From positions 19,415 to 83,414 of the IMG/VR virus record IMGVR_UViG_2913177423_000001: a stretch of DNA of 64,000 nucleotides; one strand, given 5' to 3'. The stretch is from a virus (lineage: Duplodnaviria; Heunggongvirae; Uroviricota; Caudoviricetes). A program made the position numbers and the translations under genes. This document shows positions 7,527 to 26,121 of this stretch, one piece after another. Each line of letters begins with the position of its first letter. Within the stretch, counting starts at the first letter, position 1. The notes below the pieces were generated by a model. The model did no database searches. It had not been told where the DNA came from and saw nothing but the letters and a program-made list of their open reading frames with translations.

Positions 7527-7557
7527 TGTTAGATAAATGGAATTAATTTTCTAATAT
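7526..7557. promoter_or_regulatory. overlapping inverted pair of operator-like 17-mers
   Basis: ATGTTAGATAAATGGAA (plus) overlaps the reverse complement ATATTAGAAAATTAATT. Sits between the stop at 7526 and the gene at 7635. Confidence 0.55.
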
Positions 7558-7634
7558 AGCTAACTTTTTGCCAGTCTATACAGAAATAACATTCTCATTA
7601 TCATCCCCTCGGTCATTTCCTGCCTGGGGGATTA

Positions 7635-11971: not shown

Positions 11972-11988
11972 ATTTAGTTTTCTAACAT
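11972..11988 (-). promoter_or_regulatory. operator-like 17-mer ATGTTAGAAAACTAAAT
   Basis: 13 nt upstream of the ATG of the 345-aa minus-strand gene. Confidence 0.55.
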
Positions 11989-12060
11989 AAAATTACTATG
12001 ACAAATCTATGTCGAATAACAGGGTGAGTAAAGGATCAAGATGCGTTTTTTTATCATCAA

Positions 12061-15463: not shown

Positions 15464-16237
15464 ATGGAAAGCACCAAAACAACTCAATACCGCTTGCGTA
15501 ATGGCCTGCTGGTGGCTGTTAACGCCGACATGTCACTGCCGTTTGACACGATAGAACGCACTATCATGACGTATCTCGGCTTTAATGAAGAGCTGAATGA
15601 AGAGCATGGCGTAGCTATATGGAGTGATGCAGACAGCGGCGTTCGTCGTTACATCACTGCCAGAGGCAAAGACTACTCTCTGGAAGAACTGTTTACCCTT
15701 GCGCAGTCTTTCGAATGTGTAGCATTGGACCTGTTTAATGATCCTGCTATAGCGCAACGACTTATCCGCGAGCTTGGGCTGTCGGTTACCCCAATTATCT
15801 TTAAAAATGGCAGCCTGACTGGCACATGGCGCGTAGAGCGCATCTCAAACTACCTTCCATATAACCGCCAGTTAAACGGGGTAATTTCCGGCGTCAATCA
15901 GCCTGTAGCGTGTGAAAACGCAAACCTGGTTGTCGCTGTTTTGGCAACTGCATGTCGCGTTATTGGTTTGACTAAACAGGCATTTATCCATTTTCCCAAT
16001 GGTGCAGAAGGTGGCGTAGAAATTATCGCGTGTGATTTCGAATTTACCTGGATGCTTCGTGAATATCTGGACCGAACAGTGTTCCGCGCCGAAGAACTGG
16101 ATCTGTATATCACGTCAACGATTCCTGATGATGTGCGAGCTGAAGCAATCGCTACAGCCAGAGCGAAATGCCGTGCGTCGATTGCAGAACAAGCCAAAGA
16201 AGAAGTTACAGTTAAGGAAGTGGCAGATGGTAACTAA
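15464..16237 (+). CDS. hypothetical protein, 257 aa
   Basis: ATG ORF in the operon; its 3' end overlaps the next gene's ATG at 16227. Confidence 0.65.
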   Translation: MESTKTTQYRLRNGLLVAVNADMSLPFDTIERTIMTYLGFNEELNEEHGVAIWSDADSGVRRYITARGKDYSLEELFTLAQSFECVALDLFNDPAIAQRLIRELGLSVTPIIFKNGSLTGTWRVERISNYLPYNRQLNGVISGVNQPVACENANLVVAVLATACRVIGLTKQAFIHFPNGAEGGVEIIACDFEFTWMLREYLDRTVFRAEELDLYITSTIPDDVRAEAIATARAKCRASIAEQAKEEVTVKEVADGN

Positions 16238-17321
16238 GAGCAATATTTATAAAGATCCGCGCTGGCTGTCGCTGGTGGAGAAATATAAAGACAATTGGGT
16301 ACTGGCAGCAAAAGAATTGTTTGATATTGATTTAAGCCACCAGCAACAACAAATTGTTGAAGCTATACAGCCCAATAATGCAAAAGCTACTGTCACCACT
16401 CCGCATGGGATCGGACGACCGCAAGTGCTTGCTGTTATTAGTACCCTTTATACGATTATGTATCCTGATTCCCGGACAGTAATTGTTTATCCAAAATCAA
16501 ATGCTTGCAAAAGAGGAATTGTTGCATATGTGTGGCAATGTTGGGAGGCATTGCTGAAAAAACAACCTTTTATCATTGAGTATTTTAAGGTCGGTGATAG
16601 CGGTCTGATGTTCAATGAATTTTGGGGAATGTGCTTTTGTAACTACCGCCTTAACTATGAAGATAGCATTGCAGGTCACTACGCCGACCATCTTTTATTC
16701 ATTATTGTGGATTCCGCACATATCAGCGATCGGGCATACAGTATTGTGTGGGCAAGCATGACTAGTGGTGATTCACGCATATTGCTCACTTCAATTCCGT
16801 CACCAGAGGAAATAGGCTTTTTTTATGATTCACATCATGGACGTGCTTTAGCTGAAGATAATCCGAGTGGTGTCTATAAAGCCATTAAGCTGAGTGCTGA
16901 GGATTCACCATTTATTACCCAAGAATATCTTGATCATTTTGCCGAAAGGTATGGCGGGCGAAATAGTGATGACTATCGTCGTATGATTCTTGGTGAGTTC
17001 CCTGGTATTAGGGAGGCTGTTCTTGAATCAGATATGCCGAAGACAATGCGCTTTTCGATGCCTGATGGTAGTGAATGGACAATGCCATTACGAGTGATAG
17101 CCCGGCATCATGCGCAGCACCACGCCAAAAAACATAGCGTCACGACATTAGAATGGTTGAAATCGCACACTATTCCACTCTTCACTGCAGATCACAATGC
17201 TATCGTTGAGTGGGCCAAAACAATTCCGTGGGAGCATGTCGCTGAATACGCTCACATGCTAAAACCGCCGAAAGACAGACACGAAATTAGCTGGCTGACA
17301 GCCGAAAAAATCATTGAATGA
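16227..17321 (+). CDS. paralogue of the PacB ATPase domain with degenerate Walker motifs and an unrelated C-terminus
   Basis: Colinear with PacB residues ~10-290 (DPRW, QQQxI, FYDSHH, DNPxG, SPFxT, YGGRxS, LGxFP). Walker A is TPHGIGRPQ (PacB: SGHGTGKSS) and Walker B is LLFIIVDSAH (PacB: LLLILDEASG). The last ~90 aa are His-rich and unrelated to the nuclease half. Confidence 0.75.
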   Translation: MVTKSNIYKDPRWLSLVEKYKDNWVLAAKELFDIDLSHQQQQIVEAIQPNNAKATVTTPHGIGRPQVLAVISTLYTIMYPDSRTVIVYPKSNACKRGIVAYVWQCWEALLKKQPFIIEYFKVGDSGLMFNEFWGMCFCNYRLNYEDSIAGHYADHLLFIIVDSAHISDRAYSIVWASMTSGDSRILLTSIPSPEEIGFFYDSHHGRALAEDNPSGVYKAIKLSAEDSPFITQEYLDHFAERYGGRNSDDYRRMILGEFPGIREAVLESDMPKTMRFSMPDGSEWTMPLRVIARHHAQHHAKKHSVTTLEWLKSHTIPLFTADHNAIVEWAKTIPWEHVAEYAHMLKPPKDRHEISWLTAEKIIE

Positions 17322-17330
17322 TATCAACAA

Positions 17331-17360
17331 AAAGCCCGCCTGGTCTGGCGGGCTTCTTTT
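17331..17360 (+). terminator. intrinsic terminator
   Basis: AAAGCCCGCC-tggtct-GGCGGGCTTCTTTT. Confidence 0.8.
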
Positions 17361-17749
17361 CATAACACAGGGCAATCGTCAAATTCCCCACTCCGGGCAT
17401 CATTGATGATGTGGGTGATCACGCCAAACACAGCATTGCTGCCTGTATATCCATCGTCATCCTTCGGCAACGCTTCCTTCTTGCCGGATCTTAAATCCTC
17501 CAGGTGCTGATGCGGATGCTTCCGGTATCTCTTTACGCGATATTCCCCCTCTATAGCACATACAAGCAGCGAACCATCAACTGGAGTGAGTGAGGAATCG
17601 ACCACAAGCAACGCTCCTTGCAATATGCCTTCGCGGTAATGGCTGTCAGCCGCCCGCATGAAGTAGGTGGCTGATGGATGCCTGATTAGGTGCTGATCAA
17701 GAGATATGCGGCGTTCAGCGTAATCCGCCGCAGGAGAAGGGAAGCCCAT
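17360..17749 (-). CDS. humD: UmuD'-like SOS mutagenesis protein (P1 HumD-like)
   Basis: Starts MGFPSPAADYAE, which corresponds to the processed UmuD' N-terminus; S24 peptidase core. Confidence 0.85.
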   Translation of the reverse strand: MGFPSPAADYAERRISLDQHLIRHPSATYFMRAADSHYREGILQGALLVVDSSLTPVDGSLLVCAIEGEYRVKRYRKHPHQHLEDLRSGKKEALPKDDDGYTGSNAVFGVITHIINDARSGEFDDCPVL

Positions 17750-18616: not shown

Positions 18617-18889
18617 TTATGGTTCGCATTTCCATATGGTGTTCTGAACGCCAGTACCGGGCGCGAGATGGGGGTTAGCGTTCGCGCTATGCTGATATAC
18701 GGCTTTAGACTTTCCATATTGCTGACAGGCTTTATCTGCGGTTTTTTGCAGGCTATCCAGCCCATACCAGCCATCTGACTGAATGCTTACCTTTTCACCG
18801 TCGTTGTATTGCACCATCGCACACCCGGACATAGCCAACATCGCACCGACAATAACGCTTTTCCATAAAACTCTATGCAACATATACAA
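18617..18889 (-). CDS. putative lipoprotein
   Basis: Signal peptide ending in the lipobox LAMSGC. Confidence 0.6.
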   Translation of the reverse strand: MYMLHRVLWKSVIVGAMLAMSGCAMVQYNDGEKVSIQSDGWYGLDSLQKTADKACQQYGKSKAVYQHSANANPHLAPGTGVQNTIWKCEP

Positions 18890-18952
18890 AAATCCCCTCT
18901 GTGAATTAAGGGGATTTTAACATGGTGATCGGATATCAGCTTTATCCGGAAT

Positions 18953-19687
18953 TTAATCAGCCTCCAGTGGCAATAACGCCTTAGCCATTTCATGAATCAG
19001 CATGGCATCAATGACGCCTAGCGTATGGCCCGGCTTAATCTTTAATGCGGCCTCAAGATAGCCTCTTTCCAGAGTGGTTTTTACGCTTTTCCTGGGCGCT
19101 TGTTGGGGACTATCCGGAAGATCCGGATGGTTGCCAGCCTCATAAGCTACCCGCAACCAGTGCATGAATGTTTCCGCAGACACACAACCACAGTCCACAT
19201 CGATTTTCCCGCGTTGCTGTTCCAGCCATTGCTCAAAATCTAACTTGCAAGCCTTACTTTCAAGTTCATCACCATTGAACTCGACTTTCTGCGACGCTAT
19301 GAGAGCGGCTTCGTACTGTTCGCGAGAGACAACTGACTGGTATTCATCGCTATCAAGGTCACGAATTGGAAGCTCAATCTCACGACAAAAATTCCGCCCA
19401 TAGAACTGGTCTTTTTTGTGGTCTGAGCCAAAAGCAAAAGTCGCGCATGGCGCCATTAAATTGACACTGAGTATGTGACAATAACTCATGCCATCAGGCC
19501 ATCCGCCGCACTTAGGCAACTCCTTCACTAATAAGTCGATCAGCTTCATTGTTTTACCATCTTTGCAAGTCGCCAAAGCCATTTGAGCAAGCGCCAATAC
19601 TTCATCTGCCGTATATCCAGCACCGTGACCATACATTTCTATTCGGGAAATAATCTCTGATATACGCTCTTTATTGATTCTGATCAT
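18953..19687 (-). CDS. hypothetical protein, 244 aa
   Basis: ATGA overlap with the upstream gene at 19684-19687. Confidence 0.65.
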   Translation of the reverse strand: MIRINKERISEIISRIEMYGHGAGYTADEVLALAQMALATCKDGKTMKLIDLLVKELPKCGGWPDGMSYCHILSVNLMAPCATFAFGSDHKKDQFYGRNFCREIELPIRDLDSDEYQSVVSREQYEAALIASQKVEFNGDELESKACKLDFEQWLEQQRGKIDVDCGCVSAETFMHWLRVAYEAGNHPDLPDSPQQAPRKSVKTTLERGYLEAALKIKPGHTLGVIDAMLIHEMAKALLPLEAD

Positions 19688-20382: not shown

Positions 20383-20799
20383 TTAATAAGAGAAATAGAC
20401 CGTTGCAACACTGTTATATTGGTCGAACGAAATAGCATTTACTTCATAGCTGGTGGGCAGCTTCTTACCAAGAATGTAGCCTGGCCATGAGTTCCACGGA
20501 ATTTCTGCACGGTCGTCGTCTTGCCACATTACGCAACCAAGAGAGCCAACCATTTCACCATATCGCTTGCCACAAGTAACAAAGCCGATATTCGGCTTTT
20601 CTTGTGTTACTGATACCGTGGTGGTATTGGCAGATGCATTGATTGCAGTACGCCGCGCTTGCTCGCTAGCGATAGAAGCATTTACTGCCGCCGTGGTCGC
20701 TGCTGTTGCCGCCGCTCCAGCGGCAATAACTGACGCGTGGGATAAATGACTGGCTGATAACATAGCCAGAAAAATAATAGCTCTTTGAAATTTAGCCAT
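20383..20799 (-). CDS. secreted protein with Ala/Thr-rich linker
   Basis: Signal peptide MAKFQRAIIFLAMLSASHLSHA. Confidence 0.55.
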   Translation of the reverse strand: MAKFQRAIIFLAMLSASHLSHASVIAAGAAATAATTAAVNASIASEQARRTAINASANTTTVSVTQEKPNIGFVTCGKRYGEMVGSLGCVMWQDDDRAEIPWNSWPGYILGKKLPTSYEVNAISFDQYNSVATVYFSY

Positions 20800-22688: not shown

Positions 22689-23243
22689 TCACTCTCCTTT
22701 GATGCGAATGCCAGCGGCGCGGATAGATTTCCATTGTTCCCACATTCGGTTGAAGTCTGTGCCTGATAAGGTTGCGTTACGGTATCCAGTTTCGGTACGC
22801 AATCCTTCAAGCGTCGATTTGGAGATACAAATTGAATGCATTACCCATGATTCAAACAAATCACGCTCCCGAGCTTCGCAACTTTGCTTACTCATATATT
22901 CGATACGATCAGCCATCGCAGCGCACTCTTCAAAGTTGCTAAATGCCTTTCGCTCCCATTCAGCGCATTGTTTTCTAAGCTCTGCAATCAGCTTGTCTTT
23001 GCCTTCCAGCTCAACGCGCAGCTTCCCTACCGTTAGCGCAATATCCTCATTCTCCTGATCGCGGTGTTTGATGTATTGCTGGTTTCTTTCCCGTTCATCC
23101 AGAAGCGCTAGCACAATGTGTGGCGTTATCAAGGACTCAAATTCGGTAACAGCTTGCTCACCTCGCTTGTAATTCTTAATCCCACCTAAATTTTTCGCGT
23201 TCTGTGCCGCCTCACGCAGTGCCTGGTAATTAATTTCGCTCAC
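22689..23243 (-). CDS. Ead/Ea22-like coiled-coil protein (paralogue A)
   Basis: The segment ALTVGKLRVELEGKDKLIAELRK is shared with the gene at 24267..24968. Confidence 0.65.
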   Translation of the reverse strand: MSEINYQALREAAQNAKNLGGIKNYKRGEQAVTEFESLITPHIVLALLDERERNQQYIKHRDQENEDIALTVGKLRVELEGKDKLIAELRKQCAEWERKAFSNFEECAAMADRIEYMSKQSCEARERDLFESWVMHSICISKSTLEGLRTETGYRNATLSGTDFNRMWEQWKSIRAAGIRIKGE

Positions 23244-23947
23244 TGGCTGCCTCCTTTGCGAAGCTCTGCGGCAAAGTCAGTGGCATGTTCACCGAGTAGT
23301 TTCCAGTTATCGCGTATATCAGATGCAAGCGACTGTTCGGATTTTGAGTTACATTTCTGTGCAAACATCTCCACCCCCTGCGCCCGCACTTCAGCCAGGA
23401 AAGCGCCAGTAGCAGGAGTGTCAATGCAAACACTGTCACGAAGGATGAAGAACGCATTAAGCATTCCTCTTTCTGGTACATCGTCCTGGCATTCCTCATA
23501 TGCAGCCAATGCATCCATCATTTTCTGACCGAATTGCGGAGGTTGTGCAGATTTCAGTGCTATATTCTCCGCCGCCAGCGTCGCGCGATTGCTCTCCAGT
23601 TCTGCAATGCGCTGTTTTGCGGCATCAAGTTCAATCGACAATTTTTCCAACTGCTCTTTATGCTTTTTGTATGCCTGATATGCGTGCCAGGACTGTCCTT
23701 TGCGCACACTTTCAGTAATATCAGAAATCTGTTCTGGTGTTAGCGTGGTCAGTGGCTGCGCCGGGAAAATCAGCACTTTCCCGGCATCCCAATCAAAACC
23801 CGCCTGAATTGACTGAACCTCAACTGATGGTGTTGAACCAATGCTACCTGGTGAATGGATAACAATCGCCATGTCCATATCACGATGCTGGCAGTGTTTG
23901 TTGGACAAGATACGATTCACCAACTCAGAAAATTTGGAAAATTTCAT
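23240..23947 (-). CDS. Ead/Ea22-like coiled-coil protein (paralogue B)
   Basis: ATGA overlap at 23944-23947. [23 protein letters not shown] parallels [23 protein letters not shown] in paralogue C. Confidence 0.65.
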
Positions 23948-24270
23948 GCTGATTCCCTTTGCTCTTCTTGGATAATGTTGTTGCAATCTTTCACGCACTC
24001 GTCACAGATGAAAACGTTGTCCCCGGCAATTAACTTTTTGACGGTGTGCTGGGATTTATTGCAGAAGCTGCAATAAAGCGTTGGACTGGCTGATACGGAT
24101 GGTGCTCCGGATGTCAGCCGCGCGATGTCGTCCTTGCGGCGCAACATCACACGGCAGCACTCAGCAAGTTTCTCCGGGGAGATTCCTTCCTCCGTGGCGA
24201 GTGCCTCCAGTCGTTCAAGCACGTGGAAGGCTTTTTCCTGGGTAAATGCAGAATGTGATATGGCCATCAT
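23944..24270 (-). CDS. small protein carrying a ClpX-type C4 zinc-binding domain
   Basis: C-terminal [39 protein letters not shown] is nearly superimposable on the E. coli ClpX N-domain ([39 protein letters not shown], from memory). Confidence 0.8.
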
Positions 24271-24968
24271 CTCTCCCCTTCAAAGTTCGGGCGCAGGCAG
24301 GATTGTCCTTTACGAAGCAGGGCTGCGAACCTGTCAGCCGCATCCGCGCAAGCAGAAGCAACGGAATCAAAAAATGGATCATCTCCGGTATCGCGCATCG
24401 TCAAAGCGAATGCCTCCAATCCCTGAGCCTGTATTTCTACAAGATAAGCCTCAGATATAGTGCTTTTCGCTTCACCTAACTCGTTATGAGCTATGTTCGC
24501 TACACATGCGATGTCTATATCTGGATGATTAATTGGGAGATGGCTAAGAATTGCCTCAAGTGCTGCTTTTTTGTTTTGGCATTCCGCCACCAGCGCCCCG
24601 CTATTGCTTTCCAGCTCTGCAATACACTTTTTAGCGGCCTCCAGCTCAACACGCAGCTTCTCAAGCGTTAGGGCCATCTCCACTTTCTCGTCCAGCAGTT
24701 CAATCACATCAGGATCGCTACCATCAACTACTGATATGCGCGAATTTTTGTAATGCTCGTCAGCATAAGTTCGTCCAGTTTTGAAGCGTCCGTCAGCCTC
24801 CATGCCGGAACAGGCATAAACAACATGTGATCCAGATATGCGTTCCATTGACATTTCCTCGCCACAAACAGAGCATTTAGGCGCTGGTTTCGGTGAATAA
24901 CGTTCACGTAACGGATAGTAAAGCTCGATCTCCGCCAGTTGCTCTGGCGTTAAACCTTCAGACTTCAT
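24267..24968 (-). CDS. Ead/Ea22-like protein with N-terminal zinc ribbon (paralogue C)
   Basis: CSVCGEE...YACSG Cys cluster plus the shared coiled-coil segment. Confidence 0.65.
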
Positions 24969-25275: not shown

Positions 25276-25895
25276 GCTGACATCCTCTGAGACATAAACT
25301 CCACAAAACGAACTGCATCTTCAGAAACAACGCCGCATGACTTCAGATAATTCATTGCGTCATTAGGTAGCGGATTAGTTGGTTCGGCATTTGCCAGGGG
25401 TTGAGATAAACGCGTGATTAATTTGACCATTCTCCGCTGCCGGAGGTTGTATCCTTCAGCTAAAGACAGGTAACTGGAAAGGGTATTGCTTAAGCGGGCG
25501 CGAAGCTGATCCGTGCCGTGACATTCAATAGCAACATCACGTAACGCATCGACCAGTTCACGGTAAATATGCGCAGCCATTCTGCAATCTGAGTCAGACG
25601 GCGCTTCATAAATTACCGTCAGCTCCAGTTTTTCAGCCAGGGCGTGTTCTGCTCGTGCTCCTGCGGACGCTTCCCAGCCATTAAGCAGATAGATAGCATC
25701 AGCAGAACGCACCATTGCCAGGCAAATATCCATGTATTCGCTCTGACAAAGGCCACCAGGTAATACCGCCGGATTAAGAACGATATGCCCTTCAGCCATC
25801 AGCTCGCTCGCTTTCGCATTAAACGCCGCGCGGTTGTAATCTGGATAACCAGTCATCGGACCCGCGATGTAAATTTTCAAAACACGTTTCACCAT
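25272..25895 (-). CDS. DUF4406 (nucleoside 2-deoxyribosyltransferase-like) protein with C-terminal extension
   Basis: KIYIAGPMTGYPDYNRAAF...NPA...AIYLLNGWEASAGARAEHALA fits DUF4406. The ATG at 25895 overlaps the upstream stop (TGATG). Confidence 0.7.
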   Translation of the reverse strand: MVKRVLKIYIAGPMTGYPDYNRAAFNAKASELMAEGHIVLNPAVLPGGLCQSEYMDICLAMVRSADAIYLLNGWEASAGARAEHALAEKLELTVIYEAPSDSDCRMAAHIYRELVDALRDVAIECHGTDQLRARLSNTLSSYLSLAEGYNLRQRRMVKLITRLSQPLANAEPTNPLPNDAMNYLKSCGVVSEDAVRFVEFMSQRMSA

Positions 25896-26050
25896 CAAAA
25901 TTTCCCCAGCATCGTGACGCAAAACATAAGCACTGCAAAAAGCTCAATACCAAGCTCAAGTAGCGCCAACGCGCCGAAAAACAGCACATAAAACAGGCCG
26001 ATCTCATTCACAGGTGGCTGGTGGATCGCACTTAAGGCTATAAGCATCAT
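25895..26050 (-). CDS. 51-aa membrane peptide, first gene of the leftward operon (not in the ORF track)
   Basis: GGAGGAC then ATG. Translation is MMLIALSAIHQPPVNEIGLFYVLFFGALALLELGIELFAVLMFCVTMLGKF. Its stop overlaps the next ATG. Confidence 0.5.
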   Translation of the reverse strand: MMLIALSAIHQPPVNEIGLFYVLFFGALALLELGIELFAVLMFCVTMLGKF

Positions 26051-26089
26051 GTCCTCCAAACAGTAAACAGCGACTGATATTAATGTTTT

Positions 26090-26121
26090 GTGTTAGAAAA
26101 TCAATTTTGAATATCTAACAA
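26090..26121. promoter_or_regulatory. overlapping inverted pair of operator-like 17-mers in the divergent control region
   Basis: GTGTTAGAAAATCAATT (plus) and TTGTTAGATATTCAAAA (minus). Located between the leftward operon (start 26050) and ref (start 26169). Confidence 0.6.

Follow-up and report, generated by a model that had tools for sequence, protein, structure and literature searches.

A ClpX-type zinc-binding domain behind an orphan helical hairpin in a D6-like phage-plasmid: a possible mimic of the ClpX docking domain

The 64,000-nucleotide stretch of viral DNA considered here (positions 19,415 to 83,414 of the IMG/VR record IMGVR_UViG_2913177423_000001), called the window below, comes from a D6-like, P1-related phage-plasmid. 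On its minus strand, at positions 23944..24270, lies a gene for a 108-residue protein, defined from the open reading frame (ORF) list, a Pfam match, membership of PHROG 6797 and a RefSeq twin, whose C-terminal part is a bona fide zinc-binding domain (ZBD) of the ClpX type. The protein is laid out as an N-terminal helical hairpin, a linker and the ZBD; the AAA+ module is absent and the polypeptide ends five residues past the ZBD helix. Both the gene and the domain are already annotated in databases. It is tentatively proposed here that the protein is a dimeric mimic of the ClpX N-domain, which would compete with ClpX for the adaptors and substrates that depend on that domain.

The ZBD comprises residues 64-106 (23953..24081, minus strand), as delimited by Pfam, matches in the Protein Data Bank (PDB) and a model calculated with AlphaFold2 (AF2). 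Within it, residues 66-102 (23965..24075, minus strand) constitute the match proper to the Pfam family zf-C4_ClpX (PF06689), with E=6.6e-18 and a score of 64.8 bits (cut-off 27) over profile positions 2-39 of 39. When all PDB chains were searched with phmmer, the significant matches were to ClpX only, the best being the isolated E. coli ZBD in entries 1OVX (E=2.4e-16) and 2DS5 (E=9.3e-16). The four zinc ligands, C67, C70, C89 and C92 (C-x2-C-x18-C-x2-C), are invariant in an alignment of 23 sequences, comprising 21 family members including that of the window, the chimera P0031 and the ClpX fragment P0041. Residues F69, G83, V86, I88 and C96 are invariant as well. The sequence-only reading of this DNA, which had recognized a free, phage-borne copy of the ClpX ZBD, was right. 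The C-terminal string on which it relied is present at residues 65-103, but is 39 residues long and not 40.

The AF2 model, based on the 23-sequence alignment, has a mean predicted local distance difference test score (pLDDT) of 82.9. The predicted ZBD is treble-clef-like, with strands at residues 80-82 and 87-89 and a helix at residues 90-107, and its block-mean pLDDT values range from 83 to 91. The predicted template modelling score of 0.38 indicates that the two domains have no fixed orientation relative to each other. A Foldseek comparison of the model with the stand-alone ZBD of Pseudomonas phage PP9W2 gave a probability of 1.00.

The NCBIfam models for ClpX, NF003745 and TIGR00382, score 48 and 44 bits, far under their cut-offs of 359 and 371, and align at model positions 5-50 only. 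Scores this low, confined to the first 50 or so positions, identify the protein as a ZBD and not as a ClpX. Over 40 aligned codons the ZBD shares 28/40 residues (70%) with ClpX of E. coli K-12, so that its earlier description as 'almost residue-for-residue' host ClpX was overstated. At the DNA level the identity to clpX is 72/120 (60%), and the same codon is used for 13 of the 28 identical residues. These values mark the domain as an old capture that has been kept by selection, and not as a recent copy. Furthermore, because the protein identity is 70% while the synonymous sites are essentially randomised, selection has preserved a ClpX-like surface and not just the fold. A sensitive blastn search with the gene found matches in 221 of 5,426 complete E. 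coli genomes (~4%); the matches listed all bear the annotation 'ClpX C4-type zinc finger protein', and clpX itself is not among them. A recent capture from the host was rejected, given the 60% nucleotide identity and the lack of any clpX match in this blastn search of E. coli genomes. Beyond the family, the nearest ZBDs belong to N-terminal ClpX or ClpX-like sequences from metagenomes, which are 75-79% identical and thus slightly closer than E. coli ClpX. They already contain N18, K25 and F34, which places these substitutions within the natural variation of ClpX.

The surface of the domain was compared with that of ClpX in ClpX numbering, omitting Met1, using 33 family ZBDs (31 distinct members, the chimera P0031 and the fragment P0032) and 17 ClpX or ClpX-like N-termini from the same hit list. 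The equivalents of ClpX F16 and I46 are kept, as the invariant F69 and as I99. Rizzolo et al. describe a hydrophobic side pocket of the ClpX ZBD that is made up of F16 and I46; mutation of either residue abolishes the enhancement by trigger factor but leaves the degradation of lambda O unaffected (PMC7804408). The area surrounding these two residues is shared in part with the lambda O site and with the SspB- and RssB-binding region (PMC7804408). As judged from the sequence, a peptide-binding surface of the ZBD type is very probably still present in the phage protein.

The orphan N-terminal domain occupies residues 11-53 (24112..24240, minus strand). Modelled alone with AF2, it is a two-helix hairpin, formed by residues 11-28 and 32-53, with pLDDT values of 91-95; in the full-length model the same region contains two to three helices. 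Its conserved motifs are EKA..LERLE.LA.EE and (V/I)xLRRxxD. It is joined to the ZBD by a Ser/Pro/Ala-rich linker, residues 54-63 (24082..24111, minus strand), which is predicted with low confidence (pLDDT ~64 over residues 51-60) and in which the alignment shows the most variation and the most indels. Both helices of the hairpin have broad hydrophobic faces, consisting of A14/F15, V17/L18, L21 and L24/A25 in the first and of L35, C38/C39, V41-L43, I49 and L52 in the second. Since these faces exceed the needs of a single hairpin, we infer from the model that the N-domain oligomerises, for instance as a four-helix bundle.

Searches of Pfam (E<=10) and a profile search of the PDB with the N-domain returned nothing meaningful. 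A Foldseek search of the PDB with its model was not significant either, the hits having E values of 3.7 (the best) to 8.8 and probabilities of at most 0.44. The earlier statement that the N-terminal ~55 residues are unrelated to ClpX is confirmed by this lack of any Pfam, PDB or fold match. The weak Foldseek hits are the helix-helix parts of the ribbon-helix-helix (RHH) proteins MatP, MazE6 and CopG. An assignment of the N-domain as an RHH DNA-binding domain is not supported, because the Foldseek hits are not significant and there is no sequence match in Pfam or the PDB. In a profile hidden Markov model search of 1.84 billion representative proteins, the N-domain was found in about four clusters only, either together with the ZBD or in truncated or frameshifted versions; the remaining hits, which are long and multi-stretch, represent coiled-coil or low-complexity noise. 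As the N-domain occurs only with the ZBD, or in truncated genes of this kind, the two domains constitute one obligatory unit. Helix 2 contains, at residues 40-46 (~24133-24153), a conserved motif (R/Q)(V/I)(M/I/V)LRR(K/E), which reads RVMLRRK in the window protein. The motif loosely resembles ligands of the ClpX ZBD, namely the SspB tail LRVVK and RRKKAI of MuA. That it might act as an intra- or intermolecular pseudo-ligand would be pure speculation from sequence and is not claimed.

The protein belongs to PHROG 6797, labelled as of unknown function, which it matches over its full length with E=2e-53. The RefSeq product name is now 'ClpX C4-type zinc finger protein', and an identical (100%) RefSeq protein with this name is present in Escherichia sp. 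E14S1 (83-kb contig). Older RefSeq and many GenBank records use 'carboxylate--amine ligase' (e.g. NC_050154 gp034 and NC_026014 gp19). This name was rejected as a mis-annotation: Pfam and NCBIfam give no hit to an ATP-grasp or carboxylate-amine ligase family, and a 108-residue protein composed of a helical hairpin and a ZBD cannot be such an enzyme. A full-text literature search found no experimental study of the family or of any free ClpX ZBD borne by a phage.

Members of the family are found in two settings. The first is that of D6-like and 107-110-kb P1-like phage-plasmids of Escherichia and Salmonella, in which the gene usually lies between Ea22-like genes. The second comprises chromosomal P88-like and other P2-family (Peduoviridae) prophages, in which it closes the early operon, following gpA (often accompanied by ParM/StbB) and preceding the portal gene gpQ. 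The presence of one family in two unrelated types of temperate phage, with different replication and maintenance genes, points to a host factor as the target, rather than a phage-specific one. The cos-proximal locus between gpA and gpQ of P2 has been described as a hotspot of anti-phage systems (Rousset et al. 2022; PMC9122126), and the supplementary tables of that study include arrangements such as 'StbA + Plasmid_stab_B + zf-C4_ClpX + hypothetical' in the hotspot (PMC9122126). In these arrangements zf-C4_ClpX is usually accompanied by ParM (StbA) and StbB (PMC9122126). Alternative cargo at this site includes DinI and UmuD/UmuC-like genes (PMC9122126), a flavour of SOS and ClpXP substrates that may or may not be meaningful. 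No conserved partner gene of the family was found: the Ea22-like neighbours are mosaic, and the D6-like and P2-like contexts are non-homologous beyond the Ea22 N-terminus.

Both halves of the protein are maintained by purifying selection, as the ratios of nonsynonymous to synonymous substitution (dN/dS; pairwise Nei-Gojobori estimates for eight family members) are mostly ~0.2-0.5 in the N-domain and in the ZBD. Higher values are confined to a small number of very close pairs that differ by few substitutions. In one mosaic pair of genes (L005, 6001-6333, and L011, 7001-7318) the proportion of synonymous differences (pS) is 0.03 between the N-domains and 0.32 between the ZBDs (KKLIAGDDVFIC versus VKLIITGEGVCIC). 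Near-identical N-domains attached to divergent ZBDs indicate that ZBD alleles have been exchanged behind a constant N-domain. The chimera P0031, a 115-residue protein on a 66.6-kb Logan contig, has another N-terminus joined to a ZBD that is 95% identical to that of the window. Its coiled-coil segment resembles, in our reading, that of the 235-residue protein encoded downstream of the ZBD gene in the window. The sequence of the chimera suggests that the ZBD gene has recombined with the mosaic Ea22-type genes beside it.

Stand-alone ZBDs also occur in other phages. Pseudomonas phage PP9W2 encodes one of 65 residues, annotated as 'Clp protease'; further examples are PHROGs 12435, 5259 and 20296, and Caulobacter phage Cr30 (L018, ~1507-1725) contains an ORF for a stand-alone ClpX-type ZBD of ~72 residues. 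The record of Cr30 annotates only the C-terminal 41 codons of this ORF, as gp170, and leaves out the first zinc knuckle. That such domains occur independently speaks for repeated selection of free ZBDs in phages.

According to the mechanism proposed here, the protein would be a free, probably dimeric mimic of the N-terminal docking domain of ClpX, made from an accessory operon of a temperate phage-plasmid that is probably early and under the control of a repressor. Its ZBD would bind ligands that normally dock on the ClpX N-domain, namely the short hydrophobic or basic tether peptides of adaptors (SspB-, RssB- or UmuD-type) and/or substrates that depend on the N-domain (lambda O-, MuA- or FtsZ-type). 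Because the mimic has no AAA+ motor, it is proposed that bound ligands would be sequestered and not delivered. Proteolysis and remodelling by ClpXP that depend on the N-domain would be selectively lowered, and substrates recognized by the pore would be spared. The acidic docking loop, specific to the family, and the orphan helical N-domain would tune the choice of ligand, the latter probably serving as an extra module for oligomerisation or partner binding in place of the AAA+ ring scaffold. The inferred parts of this mechanism are that the protein dimerises, binds ligands and competes with ClpX, together with when it is expressed and which ligand it takes.

The idea of a decoy that acts by titration is mechanistically reasonable. 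In 2003, Wojtyra et al. (JBC) and Dougan et al. (Mol Cell) reportedly found the isolated ZBD to be a stable dimer with affinity for SspB tails and lambda O, able to act as a competitor in trans. The ZBD binds XB peptides at 35-80 nM (PMC12373786). A precedent for phage action on host proteases is T5 Gp00X, which acts via ClpXP, driving RpoS to this protease (conference report). An extended version of the proposal, put forward more tentatively still, is that mimics of the ClpX docking domain exist in enterobacterial temperate phages and, independently, in Pseudomonas and Caulobacter phages, and that in the present protein a re-engineered acidic loop and a dedicated oligomerisation or partner domain allow it to outcompete ClpX for a particular adaptor or substrate, re-programming ClpXP during induction or infection.

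Several observations weigh against this mimicry. They concern, first of all, the loop AGDN at residues 82-85 (24016..24027, minus strand), which aligns with A29-G-P-S32, the loop of ClpX that docks adaptors. This ClpX loop presumably corresponds to SSTR of human CLPX, an equivalence taken from the invariant 18-residue spacing of the zinc knuckles. Residues 120-123 of human CLPX were termed the 'adaptor-docking loop' by Strack et al. and are divergent between species; mutation of this loop abolishes adaptor docking and leaves peptide binding unchanged (PMC7647994). The window protein has AGDN where ClpX has AGPS, and P31-S32 is replaced in the family by D or E followed by N, D, A or G. Within the family, no part of the ZBD varies more than this loop, which is acidic (AGDN, AGED, AGDD, TGEG, AGPS and others), unlike the ClpX and ClpX-like N-termini, in which G-P-x is kept in 15 of 17. 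In addition, the position of ClpX L42 is occupied by D in the window protein and by V, A or L in its relatives; this residue, one helical turn from I46, is probably on the same face. The changes at the docking loop and at L42 affect positions that are expected to set adaptor specificity, so that binding or titration of SspB cannot be assumed. The ClpX N-domains of two species were found by Vass et al. not to be interchangeable in vivo (PMC5422525). As small differences in the N-domain can change specificity (PMC5422525; PMC7647994), the ligand of the phage protein may be no known partner of ClpX. Moreover, a pure decoy would not obviously need a strictly co-inherited N-domain, and stoichiometric titration would need high expression. 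Among the other differences from ClpX, E23 is replaced by T or A in the family (T in the window protein). Members of the P88 type retain the host-like AGPSVYIC. From these sequences, adaptor specificity is very probably altered relative to that of ClpX and differs among members of the family.

The element itself resembles Escherichia phage D6, to which a 2.5-kb query around the gene is ~90% identical over 60% of its length. A 24-kb query from the window matches ~85-95-kb non-mobilisable plasmids of Escherichia and Salmonella that contain phage tail genes, cre, c1, ref, mat and humD. The ZBD gene is in the middle of a dense minus-strand block of small accessory genes, which begins opposite ref at ~26100 and extends as far as terminator-like sites at 20581-20599 and 18889-18918, if not farther. 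In the order of transcription, the block includes a 54-residue hydrophobic ORF, a DUF4406 gene, a 105-residue ORF, an Ea22-like gene, the ZBD gene, the gene for the 235-residue protein, another Ea22-like gene and others. The first of these ORFs (25895-26059, minus strand) encodes a very hydrophobic peptide of 54 residues (…LFYVLFFGALALLELGIELFAVLMFCVTMLGKF) and is the counterpart of D6 orf88.

The ZBD gene begins with ATGATG, and its RefSeq relatives start at the second ATG (24267), giving a protein of 107 residues. The upstream Ead/Ea22-like gene (24267..24968, minus strand; PF13935, E=3e-9) ends in a TGA that overlaps the first ATG of the ZBD gene, an arrangement that suggests translational coupling of the two. 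The downstream gene for the 235-residue protein is at 23240..23947 (minus strand), its start being taken at the ATG that overlaps the stop codon of the ZBD gene (ATGA). The two flanking proteins have in common a coiled-coil, C-terminal module (30% identity over 135 residues, E=2e-9 by BLASTP). The shared module ends in ...LRKG and the N-terminal parts are unrelated, which is typical of Ea22-type mosaicism. The upstream Ea22-like protein also carries a CxxC...C motif, which may be another zinc ribbon.

A weak candidate leftward promoter of the accessory operon, TTGATT-16 nt-TAATAT (only 8/12 to consensus), was identified from the sequence at 26077..26105 (minus strand). In the divergent region that separates ref from the accessory operon, an operator-like motif of 17 bp (26089-26105) overlaps the -35 box and spacer of this promoter. 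The motif belongs to an asymmetric 17-mer, TGTGTTAGAAAATTAAT, of which the window contains 12 sites with up to three mismatches, compared with 0.29 expected. The sites are at 860, 1903, 3153, 3309, 7542(-), 11973(-), 13375(-), 26089, 26743(-), 38082/38099(-) and 46163. The copy at 11973-11989 lies just upstream of the c1-like gene and that at 7542-7558 upstream of the lpa-like region; there are sites at both ends of ref and an inverted pair at ~38090. Control by P1-type C1 operators was rejected, as the P1 consensus is absent from the 64-kb window and this different dispersed 17-mer is present instead. P1 has dispersed C1 operators, and TGTGTTAGAAAATTAAT is probably the operator of a D6-type C1 repressor. 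By analogy, the operon of the ZBD gene would be repressed in the plasmid-prophage and turned on at induction or infection.

The gene humD, which encodes a UmuD'-like protein with a Peptidase_S24 domain, is at 17360..17749 on the minus strand, and its product is 88% identical to HumD of D6. In D6, humD is followed by orf109-phd-doc-pdcA; these genes are missing from the window, in which a plus-strand ORF of 429 residues (16032-17321) abuts humD. The sequence-only reading had pointed to the Phd antitoxin of P1 as a ClpXP substrate that the protein could protect. This argument falls for the present element, because phd and doc are absent, including from the syntenic site beside humD, and tblastn with the Phd and Doc proteins of P1 and D6 found no match in the 64-kb window. 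A link to Phd/Doc was accordingly rejected; the P2-like prophages that carry the family likewise lack phd and doc. UmuD and UmuD' are degraded by ClpXP, and Neher et al. are said to have reported in 2003 that this turnover uses a tether to the N-domain. That a UmuD'-like HumD is encoded on the same strand as the ZBD gene is worth noting in this regard. HumD cannot be a general target, however, as the P2-like carriers do not have humD.

Other functions can be envisaged for the protein. It could be an adaptor or hijacker, whose ZBD docks on ClpX, by heterodimer exchange with the N-domain or on the AAA+ ring, and whose own N-domain holds a protein of the host or of a competing phage, so that this protein is delivered to ClpXP for destruction or the specificity of ClpX is re-programmed. 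Two domains connected by a flexible linker do resemble adaptors, and they are both under purifying selection and never found apart. The ZBD helix, in which C39/C43 and most core residues are conserved, fits a ZBD-ZBD pairing, but positions 41, 42, 45 and 48 of this helix vary in the family. T5 Gp00X, a phage peptide that triggers degradation by ClpXP, also offers a precedent (conference report). On the other hand, the N-domains of the ClpX hexamer are tethered at very high local concentration and form stable dimers, so that invasion by a free ZBD would be unfavourable unless it were co-translational. Nor do the neighbouring genes suggest a target, since the flanking mosaic Ea22-like genes differ between the phage types. 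Such an adaptor is considered unlikely.

It is likewise doubtful that the protein has a role independent of ClpXP, in which the ZBD fold would serve as a zinc-stabilised module for dimerisation or peptide binding. The protein would then be a small regulator (e.g. of lysogeny, SOS or replication) acting with its Ea22-type neighbours, or a DNA-binding protein with an RHH-like dimer of N-domains. The zf-C4_ClpX domain is indeed fused to modules other than ClpX, as in P0046 (HTH-like tail) and P0049 (coiled coil), and is present in cyanobacterial sigma factors (PMC11119718). The gene also recurs beside Ead/Ea22-like genes in both phage types. The fold hits of the N-domain to RHH helix pairs could be read in the same way, but lack significance. 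The DNA-reading strand of an RHH protein is also a poor fit to an N-domain that is near neutral to acidic and that, in members of the P2 type, has hardly any residues ahead of helix 1. Moreover, dimerisation alone does not require that the exposed F16 and I46 be retained at 70% identity when synonymous sites are saturated.

A third possibility, concerned with purpose and compatible with a decoy, is that the resident prophage excludes competing phages: blocking of the ClpX N-domain would stop, for example, Mu-type phages, which need ClpX to remodel the MuA transpososome. The position of the gene in P2-like prophages, between gpA (with ParM/StbB) and gpQ in a hotspot of anti-phage systems for which zf-C4_ClpX arrangements are listed, would suit such a role (PMC9122126). 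The gene is not, however, among the systems reported as tested or active, and the main text of Rousset et al. does not mention ClpX (PMC9122126). The hotspot also holds cargo that is not defensive (ParM/StbB, DinI and UmuDC-like genes). A search of PADLOC-DB with the protein gave no family at E<=1, so that a known defence system was rejected. Furthermore, the operon in the window appears to be repressor-controlled and hence off in the lysogen, unlike what a resident defence gene would need. Exclusion is thus quite improbable. Finally, although truncated or frameshifted copies exist (P0054, P0056, P0057 and P0059), the reading of the gene as a decaying, functionless fragment of a captured clpX is effectively refuted by the conservation of full-length copies among divergent phages, where dN/dS is mostly 0.2-0.5 for either domain, by the invariant zinc ligands, by the ~221 of 5,426 complete E. 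coli genomes with a copy and by the tight packing of the gene in an operon with ATGA overlaps.

Competitive mimicry of the ClpX N-domain remains the tentative choice. The lead is clean and widespread; it is founded on domain homology and comparative genomics, and the protein differs from ClpX at positions that set the possible ligands. Much of the selectivity of ClpXP runs through its small N-terminal ZBD. Substrates of ClpXP that matter to temperate phages and plasmids include replication initiators such as lambda O, transposases (MuA), the SOS proteins UmuD', LexA fragments and RecN, and also RpoS, FtsZ, antitoxins and HsdR. If the proposal is true, the protein would be the first natural decoy of the N-domain of an AAA+ protease, a viral anti-adaptor that mimics the protease itself, and it would represent a new viral route to editing host proteolysis without blocking the protease. 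It would also provide a ready tool for separating the N-domain-dependent from the pore-dependent functions of ClpXP in vivo, and would account for a cargo gene that recurs in phage-plasmids and in the P2 defence hotspot and has so far been ignored. The variable docking loop amounts to a natural experiment on how the adaptor specificity of a ZBD is encoded.

The protein can be compared with several known systems. It is like the N-domain of host ClpX in its C4 zinc site and spacing, in 28/40 identical residues, in the predicted strand-strand-helix order and in the F16/I46 patch residues. Unlike that domain, it has no linker to an AAA+ module and so could not deliver a ligand by itself; its loop is AGDN and not AGPS, L42 is replaced by D and E23 by T, and its ZBD is C-terminal, behind an orphan helical domain, whereas that of ClpX is N-terminal. 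The recombinant isolated ClpX ZBD used as a competitor in vitro in the 2003 work of Wojtyra and of Dougan is a free ZBD dimer that reportedly blocks N-domain-dependent reactions, and this is the activity proposed for the phage protein. The recombinant ZBD is a laboratory construct of host sequence, whereas the phage protein is natural, diverged and equipped with an added domain.

Phage modulators of host proteases include T4 PinA and T7 Gp4.5, which act on Lon, lambda CIII, which acts on FtsH, and lambda RexB, which shields lambda O and antitoxins from ClpP-dependent proteolysis. Like T5 Gp00X, they are products of accessory, non-essential and early genes and affect which substrates a host AAA+ protease degrades, as is proposed for the present gene. 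None of them is known to copy a domain of the protease, or to be related to the present protein in sequence or fold. The anti-adaptors IraD, IraP and IraM of E. coli offer another proposed likeness, as small proteins that sequester the adaptor RssB and block the delivery of RpoS while the protease is not inhibited (PMC7226468); they differ in having unrelated folds, in being chromosomal stress-response genes and in not mimicking ClpX. The ZBDs of PP9W2, Cr30 and PHROGs 12435, 5259 and 20296 are, like the present one, phage-encoded free ClpX-type domains lacking an AAA+ module. They have no N-terminal helical domain, however, belong to phages of other hosts, some of them lytic, and were apparently acquired independently.

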